From sequence record CP121101.1: a DNA stretch of 64,000 nt; one strand, 5' to 3'. Shown here piece by piece: positions 8,634-64,000 of the stretch. Source of the DNA: a plasmid. The notes beneath the pieces are model-generated. The model saw only the letters and a program-made list of their open reading frames with translations, ran no database searches and was not told the origin of the DNA. Within the stretch, counting starts at the first letter, position 1; every line of letters begins with the position of its first letter. The translations under genes were made by a program, and so were the position numbers.

Positions 8634-9829
<1,196 letters not shown>

Positions 9830-10831: not shown

Positions 10832-10837
10832 CGGCGG

Positions 10838-14188: not shown

Positions 14189-14217
14189 GGTAATTTCCGC
14201 CCGGCGGGCCAGCTTAC

Positions 14218-14592: not shown

Positions 14593-14697
14593 GGATACAT
14601 TCCATATATGGGATATAAGGGGGGGGGAGAATCTCGCCGGGGAGCAAGGGGCACCGGCGTGGCTGCGGCAGATGGGAGGATGGCCATCTCGGACTAG

Positions 14698-16992: not shown

Positions 16993-18362
16993 CAGTAGCC
17001 TCCGCTGGCCACAACAGTGAGAACCTTGTCCCCCTGGATGAATACAGCCTGTCTTGATTGACGGTCGGCACTCTCCAATCGCCACATTCCAATTTCATCG
17101 CCAACTTGAAGTCTCTTAACGTCGTCGCCATTGATCATGGTGACAAGCAGGATGCCCCCCCAATCATCAACATCGAAGAGTGTATGGCCATCGACGACTT
17201 TGGCCAACTGAGGTTTCCTGACTGGTAGAGTCTTCGTTGTGGAATAGTGTGACTCTGCAGTGCGTGTTGTTTGAGAGATGGCTTGGTGGCCGGTATTCTT
17301 TAGCTTATTGATAGCTGCCTGAGATGCCTCTTGACTAACCCTCAATGCATCAACAGACTCCTGAATGTTGTCGACTAGTTGGCGAGTTTGCCTAGCCCAA
17401 GTTAAACCAAGGTCTGTGTCCGTCGACAGTTTTTCGGTAGATGACTTTAGCGAGCTCAGCTCTGAGTTTAGAGCTGACAAATCTGCTGCCTGTTGCTGAA
17501 CATGCCGCGAAACTTCACCTACAGCAGCATCAATTTCAGAGGTCCTATTCACGGAGTTAGATTCGATTTTATCCATCCTAGCTACCATCTCAGTACGTAG
17601 GTCATCGAAAATCTGTTGAATGTTTTGATTCTTCGGGAGCGATAGAAATGTGTAGCTGGCTAAACCAAAGCTGAAAACACCAAGAGCAAAACTGACATAC
17701 GCCGCCGCAATGGTTCTTCCCCCTACAGGGTCAGTATCATACCGCTCATATCTGTCTCCTTGGTCATGATCCAGAGTCGACTCGCTCACAGGTTCATGTT
17801 CGGTGCTTGGATGAAGTGCCGGCTGCCTTGCTTTTTTCAATCGACGGAATATGCCGCTCGTTGATTTTTGTCTATCGCCAGACTCTGCATGAATTGATTC
17901 CAACGGAGGTTCGACAGGTACATCCCCATCATTTAGCTCTACGTCATTATTCGCGTGTGATGCATCCGGGGTTATCTCTGGAAGAAATTCGTCACCGTCG
18001 GTGACACTATCACTCCGCTGAAGTTGCATATCTTGAGGCTGTTCGGTAACTGAGCTTTGTTCTTCAGTGAATGTTTGCTCCGTTTTTTCTACCACTCCCC
18101 CTACAATCCAACCCGCACTTAAGTCTTCTCCCATGAGTTCTCTTGCAACATCCATCGGGTCGATTTCTGGGACTGCATCGATAGCTTTTGCCGTTTCTGC
18201 GCCTGCGTAATTTGGGGATGTGGCATCCCCACTCACCTGGTTTTTGCCAACTAATGAGTCATCATCCTGAATGACACCCTGGGCAGTTGAAACACCAAAT
18301 GAAGAAAGAAGGCTGTCTGTTTCACTGCTCTTTCGCTTGAGGAAATCGCTATCCGTTTTCAT
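16992..18362 (-). CDS. conserved ICE membrane protein (TIGR03752-like), acidic N-terminus, TM, coiled-coil
   Basis: 456 aa with a central TM (AAAYVSFALGVFSFGLASYTFL) and a coiled-coil C-terminal half. Typical partner of PilL in this ICE family. Confidence 0.45.
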   Translation of the reverse strand: MKTDSDFLKRKSSETDSLLSSFGVSTAQGVIQDDDSLVGKNQVSGDATSPNYAGAETAKAIDAVPEIDPMDVARELMGEDLSAGWIVGGVVEKTEQTFTEEQSSVTEQPQDMQLQRSDSVTDGDEFLPEITPDASHANNDVELNDGDVPVEPPLESIHAESGDRQKSTSGIFRRLKKARQPALHPSTEHEPVSESTLDHDQGDRYERYDTDPVGGRTIAAAYVSFALGVFSFGLASYTFLSLPKNQNIQQIFDDLRTEMVARMDKIESNSVNRTSEIDAAVGEVSRHVQQQAADLSALNSELSSLKSSTEKLSTDTDLGLTWARQTRQLVDNIQESVDALRVSQEASQAAINKLKNTGHQAISQTTRTAESHYSTTKTLPVRKPQLAKVVDGHTLFDVDDWGGILLVTMINGDDVKRLQVGDEIGMWRLESADRQSRQAVFIQGDKVLTVVASGGY

Positions 18363-18922
18363 TGCTTTACACCGTTAATTTCAATAGATGTAGGGTCTTC
18401 ATCATGGAGTAATGGGACAAATGTGACGACGCGATGCACAGGGTCTACAAGCAGCAAGAATGCATCACCAGCAAGTGTCTTGAGAGCGGATTGGACAGTG
18501 ACGTATGAAAATTTTCTTTGCACGCTTGGCAAGGGGAGGGTGAGCATCACTTTCGTGCTTTCTGGCAGATTAGACATCTCGGCAAGCGTGTACCCGGTCT
18601 GCTGAATTGTGTAGTTGATCGCTTGCCCTACTGTCTCTACGGTGGGTGGAAATGAAAAGCTCACAACGGTAAGAAGCGGATTAGATTGGCGTACTTCCGG
18701 AGTGGTGTCGATTGTGGTGTAACGCGAAATTGCATACCGGTCTTCTGGTGTAGCTGCGGTGACACCCTGCGCAATCATCATCCAGATTGTCGCTACTGTC
18801 AGCGCACTTTTTACTGTCTGCATCTCAATGCGTCCATGGTTGATTTTAGTCGCTAATTTTACCATGACGTGATACCGGAAAATGGGTGCAGTTTTGGCAG
18901 TGATTTTTTCAGCGATATGCAT
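18359..18922 (-). CDS. pilL: PilL-like ICE protein (TIGR03748-like)
   Basis: Signal peptide, and the first gene of the block after a long non-coding region, as in PAPI-1/ICEclc pil-tra clusters. Confidence 0.4.
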   Translation of the reverse strand: MHIAEKITAKTAPIFRYHVMVKLATKINHGRIEMQTVKSALTVATIWMMIAQGVTAATPEDRYAISRYTTIDTTPEVRQSNPLLTVVSFSFPPTVETVGQAINYTIQQTGYTLAEMSNLPESTKVMLTLPLPSVQRKFSYVTVQSALKTLAGDAFLLLVDPVHRVVTFVPLLHDEDPTSIEINGVKQ

Positions 18923-19871
18923 TGAGCGATATGCTGAAGCCTAACAGCATTAACTTCGATATCTAGCAGAGTGGGCAATGGCGAAGGATGGGTTCTACGG
19001 AGAGGAAATTGTTAATGCAGGAAGGCGTGTGATACGACCGTATAGCAGATAAAGTTAAGGCGCCATCAGGCGCCCTAATATGATTCGTGTTTTTCTTGAA
19101 ATTAAAAGGCCGGTTTCTTTTCCTGGCTATTTGATTTGATGTTGGGGAGGAATTTTCATTCCGGCCTCTGGCAGCCCCTGGGCCTTTCGTCGGGCCAGAT
19201 TTACTCTGACTAACTGGCCGATCGTTTTTGCCGACGATCTGCGCGGCGTTGTTGAAGTCATGTTCACCATGACGGTTCCAATGCTATCGGATCACTCCGG
19301 GCTGATCAAGGGAACTAATCGACAGCCAAAGAGCAAGGGGAATGGCGAAGGGAAGGGGGCAGGCTGCGCTGCCCTTAACCATTAAAGGGGGTGTGGGGGA
19401 AAATAGAGGGCCCTTCACCATTGCGCTGGCGTAGGCCTGCATAACCCCAAGGCGGATTGGGTTTTGATAGCCGTCGGCACTTGAATGCGGACCAAGCAAA
19501 GCATGCCGCGTTGTCATATCATATTGTTTTTTAACGTTTTGACTGTTTATTGCCCTTAGGGGAGATCTACCTTTCCAGCAGCCCAGCGGGCAGTAATATG
19601 TCAAAAATTGGCTCCGTATGGGTGTGTGCGTGTTGCTTAGCTCAATCCGTGTAGACCCAATGGGCTCCGCTAGGTTGATCCAACACGTGCCTGAGGAGGA
19701 GTGCCGCCCCGTTCTTCATGGGCACTTCGGTGCAATTGGTCGCTTGTATTGTGGGAATTCTCCCCAACGGCTGGGATGGTGAGTGCAATGAATGTGATCT
19801 GAGTCACGTTTTGTTTTAGGTGCATGCCACCACAAGTGGCGTGGGCGGCGTGCCGTTACTGTGCCGCCTAT

Positions 19872-19903
19872 AAAAAACGACCCGCAATAATCGCGGGTCT
19901 TTC
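19872..19903 (-). terminator. rho-independent terminator for gene 19904-20218
   Basis: Minus-strand reading GACCCGCGATTATTGCGGGTC followed by GTTTTTT. Confidence 0.6.
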
Positions 19904-20218
19904 CTATCTTCTCGTTCGCTTGGCGAACAGGCCGAGTTGAGAGTTTATATAGTCGAGCTGAGTTTGGGTTTTTATGGCCAGAGAGCTCTCTGTTTCATCT
20001 AGCTGGAGACCAAAACCACTGTAATTCGATATCCTTCTGTTACTACCATCGACAATCTTCCATCTGAGGTAAATCCTATTGTAACTCCGATGTGGGATTA
20101 TTATTAATGGAAGAGCATCGCGAATCTTCAAATTAAGCTCATGGACAATATTTGAAATCTCGGCCTCTATATAGTCATCGCTCATCTGTTTCAGAGAGTT
20201 TAGACAGAGGCCATCCAT
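19904..20218 (-). CDS. hypothetical protein (104 aa)
   Basis: ORF followed by a clear terminator. Confidence 0.4.
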   Translation of the reverse strand: MDGLCLNSLKQMSDDYIEAEISNIVHELNLKIRDALPLIIIPHRSYNRIYLRWKIVDGSNRRISNYSGFGLQLDETESSLAIKTQTQLDYINSQLGLFAKRTRR

Positions 20219-20227
20219 CTCTCTTCA

Positions 20228-21070
20228 TCATGCCTCTTCGGCTGTCGTTTCCTTAACGATTTCAGGTTCGATGTAAGCGTCCGCTGGGTTGCTCTTTCTT
20301 TCCGCTACGTTATGAATTTCAGGTGCGAATTCATGCCGAGTTTCACCGCGCATGTGGCCAATCGATGGCAAGATCCCAATCGACTCATAACGCTCTGCAG
20401 CGATGCGAGCTTTCTCGTTATTGGCTAACACGTCATCTCGAGTGACAGGAGTATGTCGATAAGACGCTGCGCGTGAAATGAGTGCTCGGCAGCCCCGCAT
20501 AACATCGCGAATGTAAGTGGTTCTTGCACTCGGGCTAAGCAGAGCTACATGGCTTGCAAGCATGACAAGGCGAATGAAGGAGTCAATTTCCAGGACTGTA
20601 TACAGGAACTGATAGTAGAGCTGGCTACCACTACGAACCTGATAGACGATGGGTTTCACGGAGAAAGATTCAGAGGATGTGAAATTCTCTGGAACCCGGT
20701 CTTCCATGTAGCTAATCAGTGCCTGCTTTTTGGTTTTCAACTCTTCTCTGAACTCTGTAATTGCTGTCCAGATTGAATCAAACCAGAAGTCTGCATAGGG
20801 GTTGTCGAGTCGGATATCCCCTTCCAGGATCATCATGGATTGCGCCAACATGGTCAGATTGTGTGGGGTGAATTTTTTCTTCTGACCATTGTCATCAGTA
20901 CCGTCCTGATCCGATTCACGCTTGACGCCGGAAAACAGTGCGGCTCCTTCATAGGTATGGATCTCAATTTTGATGTGTGACCTGAGTCTGCCCAGTTCGG
21001 TTACTCGATTGCTCGGTGTGCTCGAGGTCTCTTCATTGCTGAGGGCTCCAAGAATCAGTTTGCTGCTCAT
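20228..21070 (-). CDS. conserved ICE protein (possibly TIGR03761 / PFL_4669-like)
   Basis: 280-aa ORF in the ICE core. Family assignment is tentative. Confidence 0.4.
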   Translation of the reverse strand: MSSKLILGALSNEETSSTPSNRVTELGRLRSHIKIEIHTYEGAALFSGVKRESDQDGTDDNGQKKKFTPHNLTMLAQSMMILEGDIRLDNPYADFWFDSIWTAITEFREELKTKKQALISYMEDRVPENFTSSESFSVKPIVYQVRSGSQLYYQFLYTVLEIDSFIRLVMLASHVALLSPSARTTYIRDVMRGCRALISRAASYRHTPVTRDDVLANNEKARIAAERYESIGILPSIGHMRGETRHEFAPEIHNVAERKSNPADAYIEPEIVKETTAEEA

Positions 21071-21179
21071 TTTTCCTTTTTCTCCGTTTGTTGATCAAAT
21101 GATGATGTCGACAGCGTGGTATACCTGTGTTGCCATTTTTTTTATGCTGGGTGTGATAGTGATGTTGAGACCCATGCCA

Positions 21180-21686
21180 CTACATGCATTCGTACATCTC
21201 CTGACATCGGCCTGATTCCACTTTGAAAATCCTCCCCATAAGTACGCCAAGATGCTGGCCTGCATGCTTCAGTGAAATTTCCTCCCGCTCATCGCCTTGG
21301 TAAAATTCGACTATGAATCTGACGATCTGCGTGTAGAGATCCAGAGGGTCCATTACATCAAAACTTGGTTGGAAGAGATTCAGCGTGTGAATCACAAGCC
21401 CCTCCAGACGGGGGTCGATTTTCGACGTTGGTCGGCCGGGAGTATTTTGCGTCCCCATCCACTGGATGGCTGAAATTGGCGAGCCCGTGATGATACCGAT
21501 TTTCTTCCTGTGAATTTTCAGCATGGACAGAAGCTGTTGAGTTCGTATCACTTCGTTAAGCTGTTCAGAGGTCTCCCCAATGATCATGGCGATGTCTGGC
21601 GATAACCTTATGTGCTCCGGTAGTATCAATGTAGCAAGAGAACCGAGCCTACTTGGATTCATCCTGCAGTATTGGACTACTGACAT
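21180..21686 (-). CDS. hypothetical protein (168 aa)
   Basis: ORF only. Confidence 0.4.
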   Translation of the reverse strand: MSVVQYCRMNPSRLGSLATLILPEHIRLSPDIAMIIGETSEQLNEVIRTQQLLSMLKIHRKKIGIITGSPISAIQWMGTQNTPGRPTSKIDPRLEGLVIHTLNLFQPSFDVMDPLDLYTQIVRFIVEFYQGDEREEISLKHAGQHLGVLMGRIFKVESGRCQEMYECM

Positions 21687-21718
21687 AAGTTCATCCCTTT
21701 TCAGTAGACATACATCTG

Positions 21719-22078
21719 CTAGGAATCACAATTTGTGAAGCTACTACTGATCAAATGCAGTAGAAGTGCCCGAGGGAATTGAGCATCTGCGTCCTCGTCC
21801 CTTGCAGGCATACCGTTGGCGATGGCATTGAATACTGGTCGAAGATCGATAGTTCCAAAGCACCCGCTAGGGTCATCATGAATGTCATCCATCACTCGGC
21901 GTTTGAACTGAAGCGTCTTTATCCAAAATTCATTCTGGCAAAATTGCTCAAGCCCATACCCTGTTAGATTGTGAGAAAAGGGGGCCGCATATGAACGATG
22001 TAGGATGGCGTGCCTGATTATCTCTGCCAGGAGTGAGCCACAGCATGCGATCAATTTGTCCCGTTTATTCGACATCAC
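21719..22078 (-). CDS. hypothetical protein (119 aa)
   Basis: ORF only. 14-nt overlap with the upstream gene. Confidence 0.35.
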   Translation of the reverse strand: MMSNKRDKLIACCGSLLAEIIRHAILHRSYAAPFSHNLTGYGLEQFCQNEFWIKTLQFKRRVMDDIHDDPSGCFGTIDLRPVFNAIANGMPARDEDADAQFPRALLLHLISSSFTNCDS

Positions 22079-22904
22079 ACTCTCCGCTGTTTAGTGCCAC
22101 GCTGATCGACATGCGTCGTATCAATCGCATTAGTCTGCCACAAGCTGGGTGAATTGTGTTGTCGTTTGATTCGTCGATCATGGAGATGATTGTTGCGTTG
22201 GCCCAGGACGAACGAGATAGGTTGAATCGCAGATGAATTGACTCTGCCATCTCGTTTTCATCGCGATATCCATTTCTGAGAGCCAACTTATCGAGGCCGG
22301 CCGCCAGTGACTCGCTTCGTGATGATTGTGCGCCGAGCAGAAGTAAAGGGATTGCTCTGACCATTTGTACTCTGCTGGAGACGCTGCGCAGATCAACACA
22401 GAAACCGCCATGTATAAGCGTTGATAGTTTTATGCCATATGTTGAGGCAATAGATTCGGCGGTGAGATAGATTGCGTGATCAAGAAATGAGAGGTCTTGT
22501 TGTGCTTCAGAGATCTGCTCTGGTGCTGTGGAGATCTCGATGTCTGGTTTTGTGGCGACCAGAAATGAAATGGCATGGCCAACAGTGTAACCCTCGATGG
22601 GGCTTGTTGGATTGTTGTCCCACTTATCCTGACCGTCGCAAATCTGCGAGAGAAGGGCGGCCACGTTTTTGATTTCCATGGCCGACGCCGACCGGAGCTT
22701 CTCAGCACCAAATGTTACGATGCTGTTCCAGCTTGCTCGGTAGTCGCGAATAAACCGCTTCGATGAGGCCATCACCTCTTCGTAACTACTAGGTGTATCA
22801 ATTGGAATTTCAAGCTGCTCGTTGCCGTAGAGTGCTGCAATTGCTAACAGTCTCTCCCCGCCATCAAGCTTCCTAAGATCCAAATCTTCTTCTAGCCCGT
22901 TCAC
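22065..22904 (-). CDS. hypothetical protein (279 aa)
   Basis: ORF only. A T11 homopolymer (22945-22955) sits about 40 nt upstream of its start. Confidence 0.45.
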   Translation of the reverse strand: MNGLEEDLDLRKLDGGERLLAIAALYGNEQLEIPIDTPSSYEEVMASSKRFIRDYRASWNSIVTFGAEKLRSASAMEIKNVAALLSQICDGQDKWDNNPTSPIEGYTVGHAISFLVATKPDIEISTAPEQISEAQQDLSFLDHAIYLTAESIASTYGIKLSTLIHGGFCVDLRSVSSRVQMVRAIPLLLLGAQSSRSESLAAGLDKLALRNGYRDENEMAESIHLRFNLSRSSWANATIISMIDESNDNTIHPACGRLMRLIRRMSISVALNSGECDVE

Positions 22905-22957
22905 TATTTATCCTCCCGCAATCACCACAAAATTTGTGTCTTTTTTTTTTGCGATAT

Positions 22958-23194
22958 CTATCTGATATCGCCGAGTGTTATGAATCTATTTGCATTGTTG
23001 AAATCGAGGTCAAGCATCAGCTCTTCGGTACCCTGTGCTGTCAGCACCATCACGTGCAAGTCAGCTCGTTTTCGCATGCCAACAATTTCAGCTGTGATCA
23101 TTGTGCCACCCAGGATAGAACGCTCAAACGTCAATACCGATGCAATGGCGTGCTGAATTTTGGACACTGCATCGCGTCTCGCTTTGGGATCCAT
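22958..23194 (-). CDS. small hypothetical protein (about 79 aa)
   Basis: An ORF from the internal Met (MDPKARRDAV...) would begin just after the relaxase stop. Confidence 0.25.
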   Translation of the reverse strand: MDPKARRDAVSKIQHAIASVLTFERSILGGTMITAEIVGMRKRADLHVMVLTAQGTEELMLDLDFNNANRFITLGDIR

Positions 23195-23217
23195 GTTCTT
23201 GTTCGCGCCATTTTGAT

Positions 23218-25016
23218 CTAGAAGGTGTAGAAAAGCCCCGGGCTGACAAAACAGAGCCTGCGTTCTGAAACGATATGTACTGCGCCAGCTCTTGCATTGA
23301 CCTGGATGGTCCCGGTCATGATCTGTGCACGTAGCCACTCAATAAATTGGTGTGCTGTATCAGAACGGCCAGAATTTTTTTTTTTGATGGAGTGTGGCGC
23401 GGACTGTCGAGTCTCCTGACGTGTACTCGGCGCCTCATTTCCTTGAATGAAGTTTTTGAAGTCGTCGCTTGTAGTCTTCACCGTCAAAGGGTATTCAACG
23501 TTGCTCGCTACCACTTCGGCAGTAAGTTCAGTGAAGCTCTGATTATCGGTGCAGGTTGGTGGGACTTGCTCATTACGCTGTTGAGGTTGTGACTCCATGC
23601 TCTGATCGGGTGGGACCATTTTGGCTTCAGGAGCGGCGGTGTTTTTCGGTATCGTCTGAGTAGAGATAGCCTTCTGATCTGAATGAACTTGTGATTGAGC
23701 GGGCTTAGCAACCTGCTTCACATCGCTTGTTGATGAGCCTGCCTTGGCCGGCTGAGCTTCACCGGGGATCTGATGATGATATTGTTCATCTACAGATGGG
23801 CATAGAAGCCTGCCGGTGTAGACTGGAAGCTTTGCATCTGGGTCTAGGACCTGGCGTTTGATCAGCACCACTGCAAGTGGCTTTTGATTTGGAGTGAACA
23901 TGAGCGAGTGCATCGCCTTCCCATTCATGTTCAGTATCAACATGCCGTTGTCACCCATTGTGTCGTAAATCAAGCTGGTGTTATCCGGCAGGAACTGGTT
24001 TTCGGAGCCGAGGGCAGATCGGATGCATTCGACGAAACGCGGGGCGACACAAGCAATGAAGTGTTGGGATACCCAATAGGGTGAATTTTTCTTGTTAGGC
24101 TCAAAGTCACGCAGTGACAGCGTAATTCCCTTGATGGCCAGGGCATGAATTTGCGGCCTTTTTGCAAGAGAGCTATTCACAGTGGCTTGTGCAGCTATTG
24201 CTACAGGGGCATCTGCCATGGGTCGCCTGTTGATTGAGAGTCGCACTCAATCACGCACCGACCGATATTCCCCCCTAGCTCCATTGCTTTTCCACCAATC
24301 GTGGCAAGCCATTCATCGCGGATGATTGATTTTTTCCAGATCCAACTGAGTGCAGCCCTTGGCATGATTTGGAATATCAGTGGAAGACTCGCAACTTCGT
24401 GTACGCCGTGCTGGCGGCGGTCATTGTATCGATAGATGTACTTGGTACCCGGCGCCATGGGGCCAAGGTGTGGCAACCAGGGTGTCATGTTTGACCCCTT
24501 CACAACCACCACATCAACATCAGTGAGGAGCTTGCCAATATCGTGCAGTGCCCCCGCTGAAGTCATCGCGAAGATATATAAGGCCTGCCATTGAGAGATC
24601 TGTTCCTCTCCATCGGCTATGTATAAGAATCGACCTGCGATTCGGGCTGAGTACACCGCAACTTCGATACTGTGCTCTAACAGACCACCAAGGTGAGCGT
24701 GGTGATGTCGTTCACTCGCGGGCAGGTGCTGGCACCAAGCTGCAAGATTTCGAAAGAGCTCCATGTAAATTTGATTGAATCGGGTCTCATCGAGTTGCGT
24801 GAACGCACTCAAGTTCTGCAGCAGGGGTATATGGCGTTTTAACAAGGCATCAGGGCTCTCTGCGACGAGGGCACCACCGCTTAATGCATTTGCTTGTTGT
24901 GCTGGATCAGCGTGTGATTTGTTATCGATTTGTCCGACTTGTTGCCTTGTTGACCGCTTGAACCACCAATTACGCACGCCTGCTTCTCCTTCACTTCTTG
25001 TAGTATTTTCTTCCAA
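23218..25016 (-). CDS. traI: MobH-family (TraI_2) ICE relaxase, split into two overlapping ORFs (probable frameshift near 24201-24246)
   Basis: N-terminal ORF 24201-25016 carries the HD/3H motif LPASERHHHAHLGGLLEHSIEV...LHDIGK. ORF 23218-24246 ends with a TraI_2_C-type tail (FIEWLRAQIMTGTIQVNARAGAVHIVSERRLCFVSPGLFYTF). The two pieces overlap by 46 nt in different frames, and together they are about 613 aa. An A12 homopolymer (23375-23386, coding IKKKN) lies inside the C-terminal part. Confidence 0.7.
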
Positions 25017-30604: not shown

Positions 30605-33571
30605 CCGGTTGCAGAGGCCGTAGCGGCCTGAACTTCCCCGCGCCGATCTTGGCGCTGCTGCGCCATAGGTAATCACCGGTCAGGTTGATGTGCTCCCAGC
30701 CGAGAGTGGCGACAGGTACTGCAATAGCGAGTCATCGACGGCATGACCATTGCCGCGCAACGCATGCGCCGCACGCTCCAGGTAGACCGTGTTCCACAGC
30801 ACGATGGCCGCCGTCACCAGGTTGAGGCCGCTGGCCCGGTAGCGCTGCTGCTCGAAACTGCGGTCACGGATTTCACCAAGGCGGTTGAAGAACACGGCAC
30901 GGGCCAGCGCATTGCGCGCCTCGCCCTTGTTCAGCCCGGCATGCACGCGGCGGCGTAGCTCGACGCTTTGCAGCCAGTCGAGGATGAACAGCGTGCGCTC
31001 GATGCGGCCCAACTCGCGCAGCGCGACGGCCAAGCCGTTCTGGCGCGGGTAGCTGCCGAGTTTCCTGAGCATCAGCGAGGCCGTCACCGTGCCCTGCTTG
31101 ATCGAGGTGGCCAGCCGCAGGATTTCGTCCCAATGGGCGCGGACGTGCTTGATGTTGAGCGTGCCGCCGATCATCGGCTTGAGCGCGTCATAGGCGGCAT
31201 CGCCCTTCGGGATGTAGAGCTTGGTGTCGCCCAGGTCGCGGATGCGCGGCGCGAAGCGGAAGCCCAAGAGGTGCATCAGGGCGAAGACGTGATCGGTGAA
31301 GCCCGCCGTGTCGGTGTAGTGCTCCTCGATCCGCAGGTCGGATTCGTGGTACAGCAGGCCGTCGAGCACGTAGGTTGAGTCGCGCAGGCCGACATTGACC
31401 ACCTTGGTGTGGAATGGCGCGTATTGGTCGGAGATGTGGGTGTAGAAAGTCCGTCCTGGGCTGCTGCCATATTTTGGGTTGATGTGCCCCGTGCTCTTTG
31501 CCTTGCTAGCGGTTCGGAAATTCTGTCCGTCCGATGATGATGTGGTGCCATCGCCCCAGTGCCCGGCAAAGGGATGCCGAAACTGAGCGTTGACCAGTTC
31601 AGCCAACGCTGTCGAGTACGTTTCGTCGCGGGTATGCCAGGCTTGCAGCCAAGCGAGCTTCGCGTAGGTCGTGCCGGGGCAGGACTCGGCCATCTTGGTC
31701 AGGCCCAGGTTGATGATCGCGTCGGCCAGGATCGTGGTCAACAACAGGTTCTTGTCCTTGGCCAGATCGCCCGATTTCAAGTGCGTGAAGTGCCGGGTGA
31801 AGCCCGTCCACTCATCGACTTCGAGCAGCAGTTCGGTGATCTTGACGTGCGGCAGGACCATGGCTGTCTGGTCTATCAGCGCCTGCGCGGTGTCGGGCAC
31901 CGCCGCATCCAGCGGCGTGATCTTCAAGCCCGACTCGGTGATGATGGCATCCGGCAGGTCGTTGGCTGCCGCCATGCGGTTGACGGTGGCAAGTTGTGCT
32001 TCCAGCAGCGTCAGCCGCTCATGCAGATATTGTTCGCAGTCGGTGGCCACGGCCAGCGGCAATTCGCTGGACTGCTTGAGGCTGGTGAACTTCTCGGGCG
32101 GTACCAGGTAGTCCTCGAAGTCCTTGAACTGGCGTGAACCCTGCACCCAGATGTCGCCCGAGCGCAGGGAGTTCTTCAACTCGGACAGCGCGCACAGTTC
32201 GTAGTAGCGCCGGTCGATGCCGGCGTCGGTCATCACCAGTTTCTGCCAGCGCGGCTTGATGAAGCCGGTCGGTGCATCGGCTGGCAGCTTGCGGGCGTTG
32301 TCGGTGTTCATGCCGCGCAGCACCTCAATGGCATCAAGCACGTTTTTGGCGGCGGGCGCGGCCCGCAGCTTGAGCACGGCAAGGAATTCCGGTGCATAGC
32401 GGCGCAGGGTGGCGTAGCTCTCGCCGATGCGATGCAGGAAATCGAAGTCATCGGGTTGCGCGAGCTTCTGCGCCTCGGTGACGCTCTCGGCAAAGGAATC
32501 CCAGGACATGACGGCCTCGATGGCGGCAAACGCATCGCGGCCTGATTGCTTGGCGTCGATCAGCGCCTGACCGATGCGCCCGTACAGACGTACCTTGGCG
32601 TTGATGGCCTTGCCTGACGCCTGGAACTGCTGCTGATGCTTATTCTTGGCAGCGTTAAACAGCTTACCCAGGATGCGGTCGTGCAGGTCGATGATTTCGT
32701 CGGTGACGGTGGCCATGCCCTCGGTGGCCAGCGCCACGAGAGTGGCGTAGCGCCGTTGCGGCTCGAATTTGGCCAGGTCGGCGGGTGTCATCTGGCCGCC
32801 CTCGCGGGCAATCTTGAGCAGGCGGTTCTGGTGAACCAGCCGCTCGATGCCGGTAGGCAGATCGAGTGCCTGCCATGCCTTGAGGCGTTCGATGTGTTCC
32901 AGCATATGCCGCGAATTTGGCTTGGCCGGAGACTGGCGCAACCAAGCCAACCAGGTCGTCTTGCCGTTGTCCCGGCGCTTGAGCAGATCGTCGAGGCGGC
33001 GGCGATGCGCGTCCGCCAGTGGTTCGGCCAAGGCGTCGTAGATGCGCCGGTTAGCACGGGTGATCGCCTCTGCACTCGCCCGCTCGACGGCGTTGAGGGC
33101 GGGCAGAATGACCGACTGCCGCCGCAGGTGCCCGATCAAGGCGCTGGCCAGCACGATGCCTTTGTCGGTTTGCATCGCCAGCTCGGTCAGCATCTGGACG
33201 GCCTGCCGGTAATGGCTCATGGTGAAGGGCCGGAAACCGAACACGGTTTGCAGCTCGCTCAGGTGCTCGCGCCGGGTCTGCTCCCGCTGGCCGTACTCGT
33301 TCCAGCTTTCGACGCCGACCTTGAGCTGGTCGGCGACCAGCTTCAACAAGGGCGGGAACGGTAGTTCATCGACGCCCAGGATGACGCCGGGAAAGCGCAG
33401 GTAACAGAGCTGCACCGCGAAGCCCAGCCGATTGGCTGGCCCGCGCCGCTGTCGGATGATCGAGAGGTCGGTATCGTTGAATGTGTAATGTCGGATCAGG
33501 TCGTCCTTGGAGTCCGGCAACGCCAGCAGGCTTTCCCGCTCGGCGGCGGACAGGATAGAACGACGTGGCAT
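30600..33571 (-). CDS. tnpA: Tn21-family transposase TnpA with a 3-prime frameshift
   Basis: N-terminus [60 protein letters not shown] matches Tn21 TnpA. The 963-aa ORF ends ...[15 protein letters not shown]. The canonical tail [36 protein letters not shown] is in another frame, after a CTCTC (2-bp) expansion at about 30703. Confidence 0.9.
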
Positions 33572-57488: not shown

Positions 57489-58379
57489 TTAGCCACCCCT
57501 CAAGGTTGCCATCCACCGCTGTGCCTGCGCCACCAGTATCCCTCCGCCGGCGCTCTCCAGGATCGTCCGCACACTGCCGACCACGGCGCCAATCACTGAC
57601 CATTTTGGGTTAGGGGAGGCGGCCTGGGCCTTGAGGGTATCCAGATCGGCCTGCAGCTCTGCACACGCCTCTCCCTGCAGTTGCCCTTGCGCGACCACCT
57701 GCTGCAGCCACGGCAACAAAGCCGCCAGCGCCTCGGACTTCTGCTCGCCTGTCACCGTCTGCTGTTGTTGGCCGCCGGGCGAGCCCAACATCATTTGACC
57801 TCCGATGACATCCCCCCCAATGAAAATATTGGTCACCGATTCCGCCTGCTTCTGCTCCTGGGTGGTAAAGCTCATCCCTTCACCTTGGATCCCCAACTCA
57901 TCCAGATCGAGTGCCCATTCAAGGACCTTAGTACGCACCGCACCGATCAAACGCTGGACCTGATTTGCTCCAAATCGAACTTGTGGTGCGATTGGCATTT
58001 TATAGAGAGCCGCTACCATCTTCGATTGAGACGGGTCCATGGGCAACACTACATATTCTGTCCCTGAAGCCAATGGTTCCACTCCATCAATGGGATAATA
58101 GAAGGGACATGTTGTCATCACCTCGTGAAGCTCTGCATTCAGGACCGGTAGCAGCACAAGACCTTTCCCCGGGTTAATGGCGTACAGTTGCCCCGTCAAA
58201 ATCCGGTACTGAGGGATAACAGCCGACTCTGGGTAGCCATCAAGTTCGTTTTTGATCCAGCTAACCCAGTCAGGCTGCTTGAGCTTACGTGCGGCCACCA
58301 GTGCGTTTCGCAGTAGATCGGTTGTCTTGACTTCGGGATTACTGGCTATGGTGATGAGCTGAGGGATAAGGGCGGGCAT
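57489..58379 (-). CDS. paralog 1 of a tandem family: AbiTii-like N-terminal domain protein with poly-Q linker and C-terminal hydrophobic helix (296 aa)
   Basis: MPALIPQLITIASNPEVKTTDLLRNALVAARKLKQPDWVSWIKNELDGYP... resembles the N-terminal domain of AbiTii abortive-infection proteins (assignment from memory). ...GSPGGQQQQTVTGEQK... C-terminal PKWSVIGAVVGSVRTILESAGGGILVAQAQRWMATL. RBS AGGAG 7 nt before the ATG. Confidence 0.5.
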   Translation of the reverse strand: MPALIPQLITIASNPEVKTTDLLRNALVAARKLKQPDWVSWIKNELDGYPESAVIPQYRILTGQLYAINPGKGLVLLPVLNAELHEVMTTCPFYYPIDGVEPLASGTEYVVLPMDPSQSKMVAALYKMPIAPQVRFGANQVQRLIGAVRTKVLEWALDLDELGIQGEGMSFTTQEQKQAESVTNIFIGGDVIGGQMMLGSPGGQQQQTVTGEQKSEALAALLPWLQQVVAQGQLQGEACAELQADLDTLKAQAASPNPKWSVIGAVVGSVRTILESAGGGILVAQAQRWMATLRGG

Positions 58380-58435
58380 CAATGCGCTCCTGGGCGATAT
58401 TGGGCCCTATTGTACCCGGGTTCGGTGGTTTGGAT

Positions 58436-58449
58436 TGCAGGATTGCAAG
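58436..58449. promoter_or_regulatory. palindromic operator-like site TTGCA-N4-TGCAA in the leader of paralog 1
   Basis: TTGCAGGATTGCAA, about 20-25 nt upstream (in gene sense) of a TACAAT -10-like hexamer. The same dyad occurs in all four complete leaders. Confidence 0.45.
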
Positions 58450-58619
58450 CGGCAGGATCCCGGCCGCCCTCATGGCCAGCGGTTGGCTCACGTTGACCGG
58501 TCACCCAGCCGGCAAACGCGGCAGTTTACCCGTTCCGCAGGTGCTGCTAGAACCAACGCAAAACGACAAAAAATGCGGAGCTAAATGCTAAACGGTGATC
58601 CTCACTGGGTTGGTTGGTA

Positions 58620-58639
58620 TACTGTGTTTTTATACAGCA
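58620..58639. promoter_or_regulatory. LexA (SOS) box upstream of umuD
   Basis: TACTGTGTTTTTATACAGCA = CTGT-N8-ACAG, 8-10 nt before the umuD ATG at 58647. Confidence 0.8.
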
Positions 58640-58646
58640 ACCAGAG

Positions 58647-59078
58647 ATGACCAGCATGTTTGCTCAACCCGCCCCTAATGCTCCCTTGCTGGAGATCCCC
58701 CTGTTTCTCTCCCCTGTAGCCTGCGGCTTTCCGTCCCCGGCGCAGGATTACACCGAGCAAACCATAGACCTTAATCTGCTGTGCGTGGCGCACCCGGCGG
58801 CCACCTACTTTGTGCGGGCGGCCGGTGACAGTATGGTCGACCACGGGATCCGCGATGGCGACCTGCTGGTCGTGGACCGCAGTCGCAAGGCGCGCCACGG
58901 TAGCGTGGTGGTCGCCGCGGTCGATGGTGAGTTCACCGTGAAGCAGCTGCAGCTTGATCCCACTGTGGCCTTGCTCCCTGGCAACCCGGCCTATCGGCCT
59001 ATCCATTTCAGTGAGGGGCAGGAGCTGGAAATCTTCGGGGTGGTGTCCTTTATCGTGCATCAGGTGGATGCCCCATGA
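58647..59078 (+). CDS. umuD: UmuD (translesion polymerase V accessory subunit, LexA-like self-cleaving)
   Basis: ...[78 protein letters not shown]... Ser/Lys protease motifs (GDSM...K) present. The stop overlaps the umuC start (ATGA). Confidence 0.85.
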
Positions 59079-60354
59079 ACAAGTGCTGCACCGTCGCCCT
59101 GGTGGACGTGAACAACTTCTACGCTAGCTGCGAGCGGCTGTTTCGGCCCGACCTTAAGGGGCGGCCAATAGTCGTGCTCTCGAACAACGATGGCTGCGTG
59201 GTAGCCCGTTCGGCAGAGGCCAAAGCGCTCGGCATCAAGATGGGAGTGCCGTACTTTCAGATCCGTCAATTCTTCGAGGCTATGGGCGGGGTCTGGTTTT
59301 CCAGCAATTATGCCCTTTATGGCGACATGTCGAACCGGGTGATGACCATTTTGGAGGGGATGGCCCCGGCGGTGGAGGTCTACAGCGTTGACGAGGCCTT
59401 TATCGAGTGAGCGAACGCTGGGCGGGCGACTTGGTGGCCTATGGCCACCAAGTCCGCGAGCGGGTGCAGCAGTGGACCGGGCTGACCGTGGGGGTCGGCA
59501 TCGGCCCCACCAAGACGCTCGCCAAGCTCGCCAACTACGCCGCCAAGAAGTGGCCCGCCACGGGCGGTGTGGTCGATCTGCGGGATGAAGGACGCCGCGT
59601 CAGGCTGATGGCGATCACCCCGGTAGACGAGGTATGGGGTATTGGTCGGCGGCTCACCGCCAAGCTGGAGACCCAGGGCATCAAGACCGTGGCGGAACTG
59701 GTCGCCGCCGACCCCAAGAGCCTGCGCCGCCGCTATGGCGTGGTGGTCGAGCGCACGGTGCAGGAACTGCGGGGGATACCCTGCGCTGAGCTGGTGCAAG
59801 TGGCCCAGGCCAAACAGCAGATTATCTGCTCGCGTTCGTTTGGGGAGCGCATCACCCAGATCGGCCCCATGCATCAGGCTCTGGCGGGTTACATGGAGCG
59901 GGCCGCCGAGAAATTGCGAGGGGAGGGGATGTGCTGCCGCCATGTCACCCTGTTCATTCGCACCAGCCCATTCAGCGACCGGGAGCCCTATTACGGCAAC
60001 CAGGTGAGCAGCAGGCTGGTCATGCCCACCCATGACACCCGGGCGCTGCTGGCTCTTATCCCCGAGCTACTCCCCCGCATCTGGCGTGACGAGCAGCGTT
60101 ATCAGAAGGGAGGCGTGATGCTGGCCGACTTCACCCCCGCCAACATGCAACAGGGCGACCTGTTCGCAGCTGAGCTGCAATCTCCGCGCAGTGAGGCGCT
60201 GATGCAGGTCATCGACAAGATCAATCAGGGGAGGCTTGGTAAAGTCTTCTTCGCGGCCCGAGGCCAAGAGAACAGAGAATGGATGATGAAGCGAGAGCAG
60301 TTGAGCCCTCGTTATACCACTGCCCTACATGAATTGCCGATCGCAATGACATAA
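59075..60354 (+). CDS. umuC: UmuC (Y-family DNA polymerase V catalytic subunit) with a frameshift after about codon 110
   Basis: ORF 59075-59410 ([62 protein letters not shown]...[10 protein letters not shown]) and ORF 59407-60354 ([48 protein letters not shown]...) are contiguous UmuC. They are separated by a -1 shift at TTTATCGAGTGAGCG (about 59400-59412). Confidence 0.85.
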
Positions 60355-60476
60355 CCATGATTTTGAGTGATGAGGGGAAAAACCATTCCACTAAAGATGA
60401 GTTATTTCCTCCTTCTTCGGCTGTTTTCCCAAAATGCAAAGCGGACTGTCGCCCCGCCCATGAATCCGGCTATCAA

Positions 60477-61354
60477 TCAGCTACCGGTCAAGATAGCCAG
60501 CCACCCCAGCGCTTGTGCCGAAAGCACTCCTCCGGCGCCTTCCAGGATCGCCCGCACACTGTTGGCCAAGGTTCCAATCAACGGCCAGCTCGGCGTGGGG
60601 GCGTCGGCCTGCGCCTGCAGGGCTGCATGCTTGGCCTGCAAATCGGCGTGTGCCGATACCGATAGCGTTCCCTCGGCGTTCACCTGCTGGAGCCAGGCCA
60701 GCAAGAAGACAGAGCATCGGTCTTTTGCTCGCCGGACACTGTCTGCTGTTGATGGCCCCCGGGCGAGTTCAGCTGAATTTGAACACCAGTCGCATTCCCT
60801 CCGATGTGTATGCTCACCGGCGCCACCTGCCGTTCTTGCGGAGTGACGCTCATGCTGTCCCCCTGAACACCGGAAGCGGCCAAAGCGAGTGCCCAGTCTA
60901 GCACCCGCTCCTGCACCGCCGCGATGAGGGCCCGCATCTGGACCGTCGGCATACAAATCTCCACCTCCCGTTCGGTACCGATTTCGGCCATCAGCAAGCT
61001 CATGAGCTCAGGGGGGAATCGGACCCTCAGTGCTTTGCCGGTTGCGGCCAGCTCAGCCAGCTCGCTTGCGGGCAGCGAGAGCGGGCAAGTTTGCCACTGT
61101 ACCGCCCGCTCGGTGTTGGCAACTGACAGCAAGTGGTGGGACCCTGCCTGCCAGTACGCCAGATTCCCGCGCCGCTGGCGATAACGGGGCACACCGCAGC
61201 CGTCAGGATAGCCCTGTAGCTCATGGTCAAGCCAGATGATTGCCTCGGGCTGTTGGAGCAGACGTGCCACCACCTTTGCCATGCGCAGCAACTTAGTGAT
61301 TTCAACGTTCGGATCGCTGGCCAGGGTGATGAGTTCGGGAACATGGGCAGGCAT
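60477..61354 (-). CDS. paralog 2 of the AbiTii-like family, with a 3-prime frameshift
   Basis: MPAHVPELITLASDPNVEITKLLRMAKVVARLLQQPEAIIWLDHELQGYPDGCGV... The ORF stops at 60680 (...QQQTVSGEQKTDALSSCWPGSSR*). The family-typical C-terminus (...LQAKHAALQAQADAPTPSWPLIGTLANSVRAILEGAGGVLSAQALGWLAILTGS) continues in the frame of ORF 60477-60956. Confidence 0.5.
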
Positions 61355-61409
61355 GGGGTGCTCCTGGGCAATAGTGGGGGCCTATTGTACCCGGTTTCGG
61401 TCGTGCGGG

Positions 61410-61423
61410 TTGTAGTGCTACAA
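61410..61423. promoter_or_regulatory. palindromic operator-like site (variant TTGTA-N4-TACAA) in the leader of paralog 2
   Basis: TTGTAGTGCTACAA upstream of TACAAT (gene sense), RBS AGGAG. Confidence 0.45.
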
Positions 61424-61916
61424 GCGGAGAGGATCCGCTCCGGGTCAAAAAAAAGGGAGGCCGAAGCCTCCCTCCAAAAAGTCACTTTTTGAACCAGTTT
61501 CACTGGCCTACGTGTAGGTGAAAGTGAAGAGAAATCTTCACTTGATACACGCAGATCAGCATCAAACCGCTAGCGATAATCATGCTTGATAGCATATCGA
61601 TCTCCATATCAAATCAGGTGAATCCGTTCACCTGAGGGTTATTGGCCTCCTGGCTAGCCATAAGACTCGCTCTTGTGCCCGTGTTGACATTATACACCCT
61701 GCCCCCCAACATTTTTCATAAATTCATGATAAATCATGTAGATAATATATAATTCTCACGCTGGTATCACTCGCCCCCAATACTTGACCAGCCCTGTTTA
61801 TCTACGAAGTATTCCCCGCGTCCACAATATGGGCTGCACCAGTTGATCTGGCTTGTATCTCGCAACGCCACCCGCCGCACGAAGAAAACGTGGCCTGCTG
61901 CCTCTGCCGGACTAGC

Positions 61917-62774
61917 TCAGTGGCCGTTAAGGGTTGCCAGCCACTTCAGCACCAGTTCGCTCAGAACCCCGCCGCCGGCTCCTTCCAGAATCGCCGCAAC
62001 AGTGCTGGCCACCGCAGCGATCACCGGCCATTTCCACTTGGGGGCGGCGGTCTGGGCCTTGATAGTATCCAGCTCGCTCTGAAGCACATTGCCGTTTGCC
62101 AGCTGCAGTGGCTTCTCCTGCGCCACCCCAGGCTGGTCCGTAGCCTTCTGCCCGCCGGTGATGGTTTGCTGTTGCTGGCCCCCGGGCGAGCTCACCATCA
62201 GTTGACCACCGTTGAACCCGCCCTCGATGCGAATGGTAACCGGCGCCAGCGGCTGGGGCGAGGAGGGCATTTCGTCCCCCTCGATCCCGGCCTCAACCAA
62301 GTCGAGCACCCAGGTCAACAGTTGGTCCCGGACCGCATCAACAAGTGCGCGGATCTGATTGCCGCCAACCACCCGTACCGGCTCCATTGAGATATTCAGG
62401 TCTTGCATCAGCATGGCCATCATCTCCGGCGGGAGAACCATGCTCACATTTTTCCCGGGAATAGCCACGTCTTCCAACCCGCTGATGGGCTGACCAATGC
62501 TGCATGTCGAGACAGCTTCTGCGAATTCAGGGTGGTCGATGATGATGGGGATCAGCCCTCGAAAGGGATTCCGAGCTTTCAATTCACAGCGTATGACACG
62601 ATAGGAGGGCAGCTTGGCATCATCCGGATAGCCCCGCAGCTCATGGTCGATCCAGGTAGCCCACTCAGCCTGTTTTAGCATACGGGCGACCACCTTGGCC
62701 TTGCGGAGCAGATCGGTGGTCTTAACTGCCGGATCACCGGCCAGGGCAATCAGGTCAGATAGCGAGGTGGACAT
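61917..62774 (-). CDS. paralog 3 of the AbiTii-like family (286 aa, apparently intact)
   Basis: MSTSLSDLIALAGDPAVKTTDLLRKAKVVARMLKQAEWATWIDHELRGYPDD...VSSPGGQQQQTITGGQK...KWKWPVIAAVASTVAAILEGAGGGVLSELVLKWLATLNGH. RBS AGGAG. Confidence 0.5.
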   Translation of the reverse strand: MSTSLSDLIALAGDPAVKTTDLLRKAKVVARMLKQAEWATWIDHELRGYPDDAKLPSYRVIRCELKARNPFRGLIPIIIDHPEFAEAVSTCSIGQPISGLEDVAIPGKNVSMVLPPEMMAMLMQDLNISMEPVRVVGGNQIRALVDAVRDQLLTWVLDLVEAGIEGDEMPSSPQPLAPVTIRIEGGFNGGQLMVSSPGGQQQQTITGGQKATDQPGVAQEKPLQLANGNVLQSELDTIKAQTAAPKWKWPVIAAVASTVAAILEGAGGGVLSELVLKWLATLNGH

Positions 62775-62829
62775 CGAGGTGCTCCTGGGCGACAAGGGAG
62801 GTCCAGTGTACCCGATCTGGCCCGGTCAG

Positions 62830-62843
62830 TTGCAACGCTGCAA
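62830..62843. promoter_or_regulatory. palindromic operator-like site in the leader of paralog 3
   Basis: TTGCAACGCTGCAA, about 19 nt upstream (gene sense) of TACACT. Confidence 0.45.
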
Positions 62844-62915
62844 GCGGGTCGGATACAGCCGGTCCGCTCTGGCTGGATTTGAGCTTGGCTTTGTCCGTTG
62901 GCCCCAGTATGCAAA

Positions 62916-62933
62916 GCGGGGCCGCAGCCCCGC
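62916..62933 (-). terminator. conserved GC hairpin in the 3-prime UTR of paralog 4
   Basis: Gene-sense GAGCGGGGCTGCGGCCCCGCTTTGCATAC: 7-8 bp stem followed by TTTGC. The same element recurs at 63971-63988, and degenerately at about 60435-60460. Confidence 0.5.
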
Positions 62934-62953
62934 TCATACCCCGACGATAGCGA

Positions 62954-63828
62954 TCAGCCGCCGCTCAAGCTGGCCAGCCACTTCAGCACCAGCTCGCTCA
63001 GCACCCCGCCGCCGGCGCCTTGCAGCACGGCCAGCACGCTACTACCGGCCAGCACGACGATCAGCGGCCATTTCCGCTTGGCGGTGGCGGCCTGGGGCTT
63101 GAGGGTGTTCTGCTCGCTCTGCCGCGTGTCGCGGTCTGCCGGCTGCCGTGGTGCATCCGCGCTCCCCTGCGCCAACCCGGACGGGCCCGCGGCCTTCTGC
63201 TCGCCGGTGACGGTTTGCTGTTGCTGGCCTCCCGGCGAGCTCACCATGACTTGGCCACCGTGGAACCCGCCCTCGATGTGAACGGTCACCGGCGCCAACG
63301 GCTGGGGTGGGGAGGGCATCCCGTCCCCCTCGATCCCGGCCTTGGCCAGCTCGAGTGCCCAGTCCAACACCTTGTCACGGACTTGAGCTACGACGGCCTC
63401 AGTTGGGATGCGTCCAGTTGATGCACGACCTGGTACTGATCGCGGGCTTTCGCTGACAAGCCATCGTAAACGCGATGCCCAGAGGGGAGTTGCACATAGA
63501 GGGTGCCTTGTGACCCCAGCGCCTCCAACTTGCTGATCGAATCAAAACAGAGGTGAGCCTGAGCGGGAATCTCACCGTCAGTTTGGAACGTAAACAGATC
63601 AGTCAATTCGCCTGTCTGGACATCCCGCAGGTACACCGGGGCACGGATAAAACGGTATAGAGGAAGAGGATCTGACTCACGGTAGCCCCGCAGCTCCAGG
63701 TCGATCCAGGCTAACTGGTCGGATAGCTGGCACCGGTGGGCGATCACCTTGGCCTTGCGCAGCAGATCGGCTGTCTTGACGGCCGGATCGCTGGCCTGGG
63801 CGATGAGTTCAGGGAGTGGGGCGGGCAT
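62954..63828 (-). CDS. paralog 4 of the AbiTii-like family, frameshifted in the middle
   Basis: MPAPLPELIAQASDPAVKTADLLRKAKVIAHRCQLSDQLAWIDLELRGYRESD... (ORF 63388-63969 frame) continues after a shift at about 63370-63410 as ...IPTEAVVAQVRDKVLDWALELAKAGIEGDGMPSPPQPLAPVTVHIEGGFHGGQVMVSSPGGQQQQTVTGEQK...KWPLIVVLAGSSVLAVLQGAGGGVLSELVLKWLASLSGG (ORF 62954-63370). Confidence 0.5.
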
Positions 63829-63883
63829 CCAGGCGCTCCTAGGCGACAAAAGAGCCCCAGTGTACCCGATTTGGCCTGCGCGA

Positions 63884-63897
63884 TTGCAGCGCTGCAA
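63884..63897. promoter_or_regulatory. palindromic operator-like site in the leader of paralog 4 (perfect dyad)
   Basis: TTGCAGCGCTGCAA, about 19 nt upstream (gene sense) of TACACT, RBS AGGAG. Confidence 0.45.
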
Positions 63898-63970
63898 GCG
63901 CGGGGCGGACCCCGCTCGCCCTCGCTGACCCGATTGGGGGTGGGCTTTGGCCGCTGACCAAGAAAGCAAA

Positions 63971-63988
63971 GCGGGGCCGCAGCCCCGC
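63971..63988 (-). terminator. conserved GC hairpin, presumably the 3-prime end of a fifth paralog lying beyond the window
   Basis: GCGGGGCCGCAGCCCCGC in the same context (aaagcaaagc...cccatgcccc) as the hairpin at 62916-62933. Confidence 0.4.
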
Positions 63989-64000
63989 CCATGCCCCGAT

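Follow-up and report, generated by a model that had tools for sequence, protein, structure and literature searches.

A candidate co-regulated panel of fused AbiT-type proteins with variable putative sensor domains on a conjugative MOBH plasmid

What might a conjugative plasmid gain from carrying many diverged copies of one gene, each behind its own copy of the same leader? This question is raised by a 64,000-nucleotide (nt) stretch of plasmid DNA (sequence record CP121101.1; hereafter the window), the end of which (positions 57,489 to 64,000) is occupied by a tandem array of homologous minus-strand genes. The open reading frame (ORF) listing places four of these genes, here called g1 to g4 (Table 1), exactly where an earlier interpretation made without database searches (the sequence-only reading) had located them. 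The array proteins resemble AbiT of Lactococcus lactis, a validated two-gene abortive infection (Abi) system (PMC13064643). The explanation that is slightly favoured here sees in the array a set of AbiT-type fusion proteins with variable sensors, regulated together and carried by a MOBH plasmid.

The N-terminal part of these proteins belongs to the Pfam family PF18864 (AbiTii). Residues 5-184 of g1 align to model positions 2-188 of 189 (E-value: 2.8e-33), and the scores of g1 (116.1 bits), g3 (116.5 bits), the N part of g2 (105.1 bits) and the N fragment of g4 (64.6 bits) can be compared with a gathering cut-off of 27.6 bits. Matches at 105-116 bits have E-values of 2e-33 to 7e-30, while those to the PADLOC AbiTii model are approximately 1e-33 to 1e-35, and the array proteins already bear the NCBI label "AbiTii domain-containing". 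The likeness to AbiTii had previously been noticed in the first 60 or so amino acids (aa); the family assignment is correct, but the domain is three times as long, at about 180 aa. A highly conserved glutamate has been reported for the AbiTii domain, which is described as globular, alpha+beta, N-terminal and about 180 aa long (PMC3710099). E46 of the array proteins, located in the motif WIxxELxGYP, is invariant in 35 homologs and agrees with this glutamate. An AlphaFold2 model of g1 based on a 35-sequence alignment (mean predicted local distance difference test [pLDDT] score: 85) has an alpha+beta N domain at residues 5-162, with block-mean pLDDT values of 81 (residues 1-10) and mostly 86-97 (residues 11-160). 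The Q-rich segment that follows (residues 182-206) is modeled with low confidence and is disordered. No solved structure was found to resemble the N domain, and a Foldseek search of the PDB with the full model returned nothing at E ≤ 0.001.

The remainder of the protein had been described as a G/Q-rich linker followed by a C-terminal membrane helix. These two elements are instead parts of one conserved AbiTi-like module, made up of a Q-rich motif and a four-helix bundle. Glutamines Q196, Q206 and Q208 of the supposed linker are invariant, and this segment aligns with positions 2-30 of the PADLOC AbiTi model (114 positions), the standard used here for likeness to AbiTi. The four-helix bundle is predicted at residues 212-295 (block-mean pLDDT: 85-96), the same four helices are obtained when AlphaFold2 is rerun on the C module alone, and the turn that joins helices 3 and 4 contains a conserved EGAxG. 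A phmmer search with g1 residues 204-297 against 1.84 billion representatives returned 229 cluster representatives at E ≤ 1e-3. Among the best 150 of these 229, 64 are AbiTii fusions, at least 31 have other N domains and 55 are short. The C module is found fused to winged helix-turn-helix (wHTH)-like regions of about 100 aa (P0211 and others), to a SEFIR/TIR domain (P0166; PADLOC bSEFIR E-value: 1.4e-36) and, in a further search, to CsrA (P0332, P0327, P0331 and P0336). PADLOC PDC-M14B is matched by 30 of 32 non-AbiTii members and PADLOC AbiTi by 22 of the 32, with the best AbiTi matches extending over model positions 2-113 of 114 (best E-value: 8.5e-10). A profile of window-type C modules (A4) additionally finds stand-alone proteins of 115-135 aa, including P0288 (127 aa; E-value: 6e-37), which matches PADLOC AbiTi at 1.4e-8. 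Because both the C-module relatives and P0288 match PADLOC AbiTi, the array proteins are read as single-chain AbiTii-AbiTi fusions. In two loci with a stand-alone form (L008 and L009), the C-module gene (about 120 aa) is separated by 9 nt from the next gene, which encodes 158 aa. Genomic context was not informative for a CsrA fusion or for a relative of 203 aa.

A number of observations weigh against this interpretation. The link between the window proteins and AbiTi is mostly transitive: g1 has no match to PADLOC AbiTi at E ≤ 1, and its C module is recognised only by PDC-M14B (residues 203-289 to model positions 173-261 of 275; E-value: 4e-4), while the direct match of g2 to PADLOC AbiTi is weak (E-value: 5.8e-4 over 27 residues). 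Stand-alone C-module genes are located among metabolic genes. The neighbours of the arrays on the plasmids are maintenance genes (a ParE toxin-antitoxin module, a KfrA-like gene and a tyrosine recombinase), umuDC and transposons, with no recognised defence systems among them, and broken copies are common (two of four in the window and four of six in the Aeromonas caviae plasmid CP121792). The C module is also found on SEFIR/TIR, a domain that is an effector type in its own right, as well as on the nucleic-acid binders CsrA and wHTH. Given these partners, the C module could serve as an adaptor or in assembly at least as readily as it could be an effector. In the corresponding alternative, the AbiTi-like module would be a homotypic adaptor or oligomerisation domain through which the paralogs assemble together or with a separate effector whose gene lies elsewhere, such that a lone unit would be inactive. 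The very different N domains to which the module is attached point in this direction, as do the pairing of the stand-alone form with a second gene, the multi-gene nature of the candidate PDC-M14 and the observation that homogenisation of the paralogs is strongest in the C module (proportion of synonymous differences [pS]: 0.37 vs 0.72 in the variable part). However, no partner gene is found consistently beside the Aeromonas units, which are monocistronic and have terminators of their own, and the adaptor explanation is considered somewhat doubtful.

Pfam HEPN models have no match to the window proteins at E ≤ 1, and neither an R-x4-6-H motif nor an invariant or near-invariant histidine is present in the C module in alignments of 35, 32 and 17 sequences. 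Membership in the HEPN RNases is not supported because there is no conserved R-x4-6-H motif, and structure comparison indicates that the four-helix bundle is a generic fold. The best match in a hidden Markov model (HMM) search of PDB sequences with the C-module profile, phycocyanin beta (E-value: 0.023), was judged to be spurious.

According to the sequence-only reading, the C-terminal Ala/Gly-rich helix could insert into membranes. In a mechanism of this type the helix would be the effector, and activation would permeabilise the membrane and kill the cell. The helix in question is helix 3 of the predicted bundle. With a 19-aa Kyte-Doolittle window (usual threshold: approximately 1.6), the best value is 1.32 for g1, which is below the threshold, and 1.56 for g3, which is borderline. 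The C-terminal helix is at or above the threshold in 7 of 35 aligned proteins, all of them class B relatives of g3 and g4 (1.64-1.92); P0040 (1.60) and P0058 (1.73) also reach the threshold, with the P0058 window being N-terminal. These class B hydrophobic stretches, which are preceded by KRKW, are what would be expected if the membrane mechanism were correct, and small-residue-rich four-helix bundles can refold into membranes in other systems. In contrast, g1 and most class A members have values of 1.0-1.35, and distant relatives (0.8-1.2) have a charged, amphipathic helix (WEIIKATARSIKTVAEGAAG) in which Lys, Arg and Glu are distributed over the whole length. AlphaFold2 places the helix in a soluble four-helix bundle with high confidence in two independent runs, with the conserved EGAxG at the helix 3-4 turn. 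Because hydropathy is high only in class B relatives and the helix of distant relatives is charged with low hydropathy, a transmembrane segment is not a feature of this family. Prediction of transmembrane and amphipathic helices, named in advance as a check on the membrane proposal, thus speaks against it, and killing by membrane insertion is quite unlikely. A frameshift artefact was considered as the origin of the class B C-terminus of g3 and g4 and was rejected: on inspection of the sequence, no alternative frame restores helix 1, and the variant recurs in several database clusters.

The array is not restricted to the window. Over 7 kb, the array region has 99.7% identity with two circular plasmids, pIncA_P7536 of Enterobacter cloacae (CP071789) and pAER-f909 of Aeromonas sp. 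(NZ_CP026221). Based on tblastn and local HMM scans, each of these plasmids has seven full-length and two partial copies, A. rivuli has four full-length copies and one partial copy, and A. caviae CP121792 has two full-length and four partial copies, without umuDC. In the database, full-length homologs (about 298 aa) fall into more than 100 clusters; those with names are nearly all from Aeromonas plasmids, and some are located on chromosome-sized contigs. A scan of species-representative genomes with the closer alignment identified four loci only, all in Aeromonas, while the same scan with a single protein gave no match.

The paralogs are 38-74% identical to one another, consistent with the proposal that the array is diversified and not the product of a recent duplication. 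Residues 61-140, which form a beta-rich insert in the N domain, have a mean paralog identity of 27% and near-saturated synonymous differences (pS: 0.72), while the flanks, linker and C module have mean identities of 59-69% (pS: 0.37-0.58; 0.50 at the 5' end). Direct-repeat families in the window span the 5' ends, linkers and 3' ends of the paralogs. As pS is lower in the conserved parts than in the insert, the pattern suggests either that the conserved parts are homogenised by gene conversion or that the insert has a separate history, with cassette-like exchange. In the best-sampled ortholog pair, u7 and its A. rivuli counterpart, the ratio of nonsynonymous to synonymous substitutions (dN/dS) is 0.14 overall and 0.05 for residues 61-135 (dS: 0.5), which indicates strong purifying selection that extends to the variable part; the ratio is 0.26 for g3 orthologs and 0.72 for g4 orthologs, the latter on few changes. 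Because the inserts differ between paralogs and are conserved in the best-sampled orthologs, the copies appear to be mostly functional genes with distinct, maintained inserts, a pattern expected of specificity variants. It is possible, though we propose it only tentatively, that the array is a repertoire of single-chain AbiT-type immune sensors, in which distinct and maintained recognition subdomains are joined to one shared output or assembly module.

The state of the individual genes bears on a different alternative, namely that the array is a decaying repeat family without current function. All four paralogs had been counted as complete; only g1 and g3 are open, and g2 and g4 are split. The frameshift in g2 lies near position 60700, between KTDALS and VFLLAWLQQV, and is common to the window, CP071789 and NZ_CP026221, both relatives being annotated with just a 675-nt ORF at this position. 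The break in g4 is seen in the window only, and the gene is an intact 876-nt ORF in both relatives. Base-by-base comparison of the window with both relatives reveals six indel positions in 7 kb, and for this reason sequencing or assembly errors may be a likelier origin of the window-only 1-nt deletions in g4 (near 63399) and umuC (at 59407) than true inactivation. What had been taken as the 3' end of a fifth gene at the window edge is only its 3' flank and terminator, as the window stops 5 nt before the g5 stop codon. Decay would account for a g2 frameshift shared by three near-identical plasmids, for the partial copies in A. caviae CP121792 (four of six) and A. rivuli (one of five) and for the g4 ratio of about 0.7. 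It would not account for the seven intact full-length copies in both pAER-f909 and pIncA_P7536, the low dN/dS of u7 and of its variable part in particular, the more than 100 distinct clusters of full-length homologs or the conservation of promoter, ribosome-binding site (RBS) and terminator. Decay as an explanation of the whole array is very improbable.

The leaders of the paralogs are closely related. Those of 14 units, taken from the three replicons window, pAER-f909 and A. rivuli contig, were aligned; conservation extends over about 110 nt, with the consensus CGGGATCC-N3-5-CGCTTGCAGCGCTGCAATCC-N~14-CGGGTACA(A/C)T-N~16-TTGTCG-CCCAGGAGCACC-N3-4-ATG. Each leader in the window has the RBS CCCAGGAG (CCTAGGAG in g4), a TACAAT or TACACT hexamer and a 14-bp dyad, TTG[C/T]A-N4-T[G/A]CAA. 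The dyad occurs five times in the window vs 0.33 times expected (15-fold enrichment). Four of these five copies are upstream of paralogs, 19-20 nt before the hexamer, and the g2 copy has compensatory changes in both arms (TTGTA...TACAA). The remaining copy, at 50598, was considered as a regulatory site and is treated as a chance copy because it lies inside a resistance island and is without a leader. The statement that each gene has its own leader with a hexamer and a shared operator-like dyad is thus confirmed for all four paralogs, and the hairpins reported after genes 2, 4 and 5, degenerate after gene 2, are likewise present (Table 1). A consensus promoter scan did not call the paralog leaders, as these have no sigma-70 -35 element at 16-18 nt spacing. 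With no -35 element and a dyad centre near -39, the dyad could therefore either act as an operator that covers the -35 region or be an activator site of the class-II type.

Table 1. Coordinates of the array genes, their leaders and terminators, and the intervening features in the window
Feature	Coordinates	Strand	Remarks
g1	57489..58379	-	Intact, 296 aa from ATG at 58379; AbiTii domain + Q-motif + AbiTi-like four-helix bundle
g1 leader	58380..58470	-	GGATCC; dyad TTGCAATCCTGCAA at 58435-58448; TACAAT at 58414-58409; RBS CCCAGGAG
LexA-type SOS box CTGTGTTTTTATACAG	58622..58637	+	Upstream of umuD
umuD	58656..59078	+	Coordinates mapped from CP071789 and NZ_CP026221 annotation
umuC	59075..60354	+	Broken by window-only 1-nt deletion at 59407 relative to both relatives
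g2 terminator hairpin	60439..60459	-	Degenerate
g2	60477..61354	-	Frameshifted paralog (pseudogene); ORFs 60680-61354 (N part) and 60477-60956 (C part, other frame)
g2 leader	61355..61440	-	Compensated dyad TTGTAGCACTACAA at 61410-61423; TACAAT
g3-g2 insert	61441..61916	-	About 480 nt, AT-richer; ORF 61500-61607 and strong terminator 61452-61475
g3	61917..62774	-	Intact, 285 aa, class B; bundle helix 1 replaced by hydrophilic stretch
g3 leader	62775..62860	-	Dyad at 62830-62843; TACACT; CCCAGGAG
g4 terminator hairpin GCGGGGCTGCGGCCCCGC + TTTGC	~62916..62933	-	Repeat family D13
g4	62954..63828	-	Split: ORFs 62954-63370 and 63388-63969; 1-nt deletion at ~63399
g4 leader	63829..63910	-	Perfect dyad TTGCAGCGCTGCAA at 63884-63897 (repeat family I17); TACACT at 63864-63859; CCTAGGAG
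g5 terminator hairpin GCGGGGCTGCGGCCCCGC + TTTGC	63969..63990	-	GC-rich

The dyad is also associated with genes of other types. Dyads at positions 4067, 5489 and 9515 of the A. rivuli contig (L004) precede non-AbiTii genes: a KfrA_N coiled-coil gene, a gene of 305-340 aa with a small membrane ORF behind it, and a further membrane protein. A dyad of pAER-f909 (L003), at 25866, is located about 120 nt upstream of a ParE/RelE module, the ParE/RelE gene's own leader showing no alignment with the dyad cassette. Neither the 305-aa gene nor the ParE partner has a Pfam match. Because it also precedes non-AbiTii genes, the dyad TTGCAG-N2-CTGCAA appears to mark a plasmid-wide regulon, and it may be speculated that the KfrA-like DNA-binding protein is the regulator of the dyad genes. 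A comparable arrangement is the kilE (kleA-F)/kor regulon of IncP-1 plasmids, in which repeated promoter-gene paralog units have a common operator and a KfrA-type gene is present. Like these, the units described here are repeated paralogs on a conjugative plasmid that share an operator-like dyad with a KfrA-type gene; the proteins and the operator sequence, however, are unrelated to those of IncP-1.

The plasmid setting of the array is as follows. Positions 9826-25000 of the window contain MOBH traI/traD conjugation genes and are 99.7% identical to pAER-f909, while positions 32001-56889 are a composite resistance island (mer operon, class 1 integron, cmlA5, ISCR1 and ISEcp1-type elements), the edge of which is about 600 nt from g1. 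The array had been taken for cargo of an integrative and conjugative element (ICE). Given the MOBH traI/traD genes and the resistance island, its setting is the backbone of a conjugative MOBH plasmid, as in the circular Aeromonas and Enterobacter plasmids, and not demonstrably ICE cargo. Together with the dyad cassettes upstream of the A. rivuli KfrA_N and other non-AbiTii genes and the single dyad near ParE/RelE, this location on a conjugative backbone, about 30 kb from traI/traD and adjoining umuDC, would suit a regulon for plasmid establishment or maintenance, in which the paralogs would be host-modulating or anti-defence proteins under a global plasmid regulator and would not act against phages. 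The placement of the array and umuDC may be likened to the rumAB-oriT neighbourhood of SXT/R391 elements. However, the relatives of both modules are of defence type only (AbiT, HEPN fusions, bSEFIR and PDC-M14), some members are located on chromosome-sized contigs, and co-regulation with maintenance genes is compatible with a role in defence. An establishment function without anti-phage activity is thus regarded as unlikely.

A LexA-controlled umuDC operon had been described on the opposite strand between units 1 and 2. In the window, umuDC is indeed found there with a LexA-type box, but it is not a constant neighbour, being absent from the A. caviae CP121792 array. The SOS box upstream of umuD is the only CTGT-N8-ACAG sequence at 57-64 kb, and the same scan found no LexA box in the paralog leaders. 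In the relatives, ORFs encoding 92-aa proteins with two transmembrane segments are interleaved between the paralogs (pAER-f909 31084-31362 and 32604-32882; A. rivuli approximately 7929), each preceded by a perfect LexA box (CTGTATATGGATACAG). These proteins have no Pfam match and may be SOS-induced membrane peptides. In the A. caviae plasmid CP039630.1, a PAAR-domain protein is annotated beside umuD and array remnants. The insert between g3 and g2 contains a hydrophobic ORF of 35 aa (MEIDMLSSMIIASGLMLICVYQVKISLHFHLHVGQ) after a structured 5' region and before a strong terminator, a layout that recalls type I toxins. This ORF has no Pfam match and no credible Rfam match, and an Rfam scan of 56.5-64 kb gave sub-threshold chance matches only.

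Three known groups of proteins are related to those of the array. As in L. lactis AbiT (abiTi and abiTii), there is a clear AbiTii N domain, the C-module family matches PADLOC AbiTi from end to end, the genes are plasmid-borne, and YicC (8VER), a structural neighbour found here, has also been reported for AbiTi. Unlike the two-gene L. lactis system, the array genes, which are known from sequence and occur in Gammaproteobacteria, encode an AbiTii part followed by an AbiTi-like part in one ORF; their diverged paralogs, which have a hypervariable subdomain, number from 4 to more than 9 per array. AbiTii domains fused to HEPN effectors have been described in other bacteria (c2405 and Ymh; Anantharaman et al. 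2013, PMC3710099); these share with the array proteins an N-terminal AbiTii domain (about 180 aa) that contains the conserved glutamate, and a helical C module, but the array proteins have no detected HEPN family, R-x4-6-H motif or invariant C-module histidine. PDC candidates are defined as genes embedded in BREX, DISARM or type I restriction-modification loci (Payne et al., bioRxiv 10.1101/2024.01.29.577857). The C-terminal 100 or so positions of PADLOC PDC-M14 gene B (approximately 152-265 of 261-276) match the C module, at 4e-4 for g1 and down to 2.7e-13 for its relatives, but the N-terminal two thirds are unmatched by the window proteins and PDC-M14 is a multi-gene candidate. No paper in the searchable literature links AbiT to Aeromonas plasmids, and none was found by the name PDC-M14. 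The AbiTii domain family itself is known. Within the searchable literature, four points are new: the reading of the proteins as AbiTii-AbiTi fusions, the modular use of the AbiTi-like part, the arrays of many paralogs in which a hypervariable insert is defined, and the regulon with a shared dyad.

The proposed model for the array is as follows. The window contains the beginning of a longer tandem array, namely its first four units, and near-identical plasmids have at least nine copies. Each unit is monocistronic and consists of a promoter/operator leader, a gene for a protein of about 290 aa and, in some units (after g2, g4 and g5), an intrinsic terminator. A common factor would bind the dyad approximately 39 bp upstream of the presumed start, giving co-regulation of promoters without a recognisable -35 element. 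In the AbiTii domain, a conserved helical scaffold (residues 1-60 and approximately 139-165) would bear a hypervariable alpha/beta insert (approximately 61-138) whose surface recognises a cue from a phage or another invader, and the AbiTi-like module, with its Q-rich motif and four-helix bundle, would provide output or assembly for all copies. On this view the array is probably a panel of phage sensors, a defence role that we infer from domain homology and module associations.

AbiT was reportedly discovered in 2002, and we know of no mechanism that has been established for it since. If the array proteins are indeed natural fusions of both AbiT parts, this is an argument for joint action of the two as a single physical unit, and the fused protein offers a compact single-gene model for the study of AbiT. 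AbiTii is a widespread orphan "sensor-like" domain, for which the paralog panel flags a candidate specificity region, residues 61-138 or so. The presence of the C module on several unrelated N domains marks it as a candidate reusable immune module that is worth characterising. Should the array be a repertoire of sensors, the C module would be a new and widespread module for signalling or effector function in prokaryotic immunity, and the array would have a receptor-cluster organisation comparable to that of NLR gene clusters. The arrays ride on megaplasmids that confer multidrug resistance and pass between Aeromonas and Enterobacterales and, should they block phages, they may affect both phage therapy and plasmid ecology.

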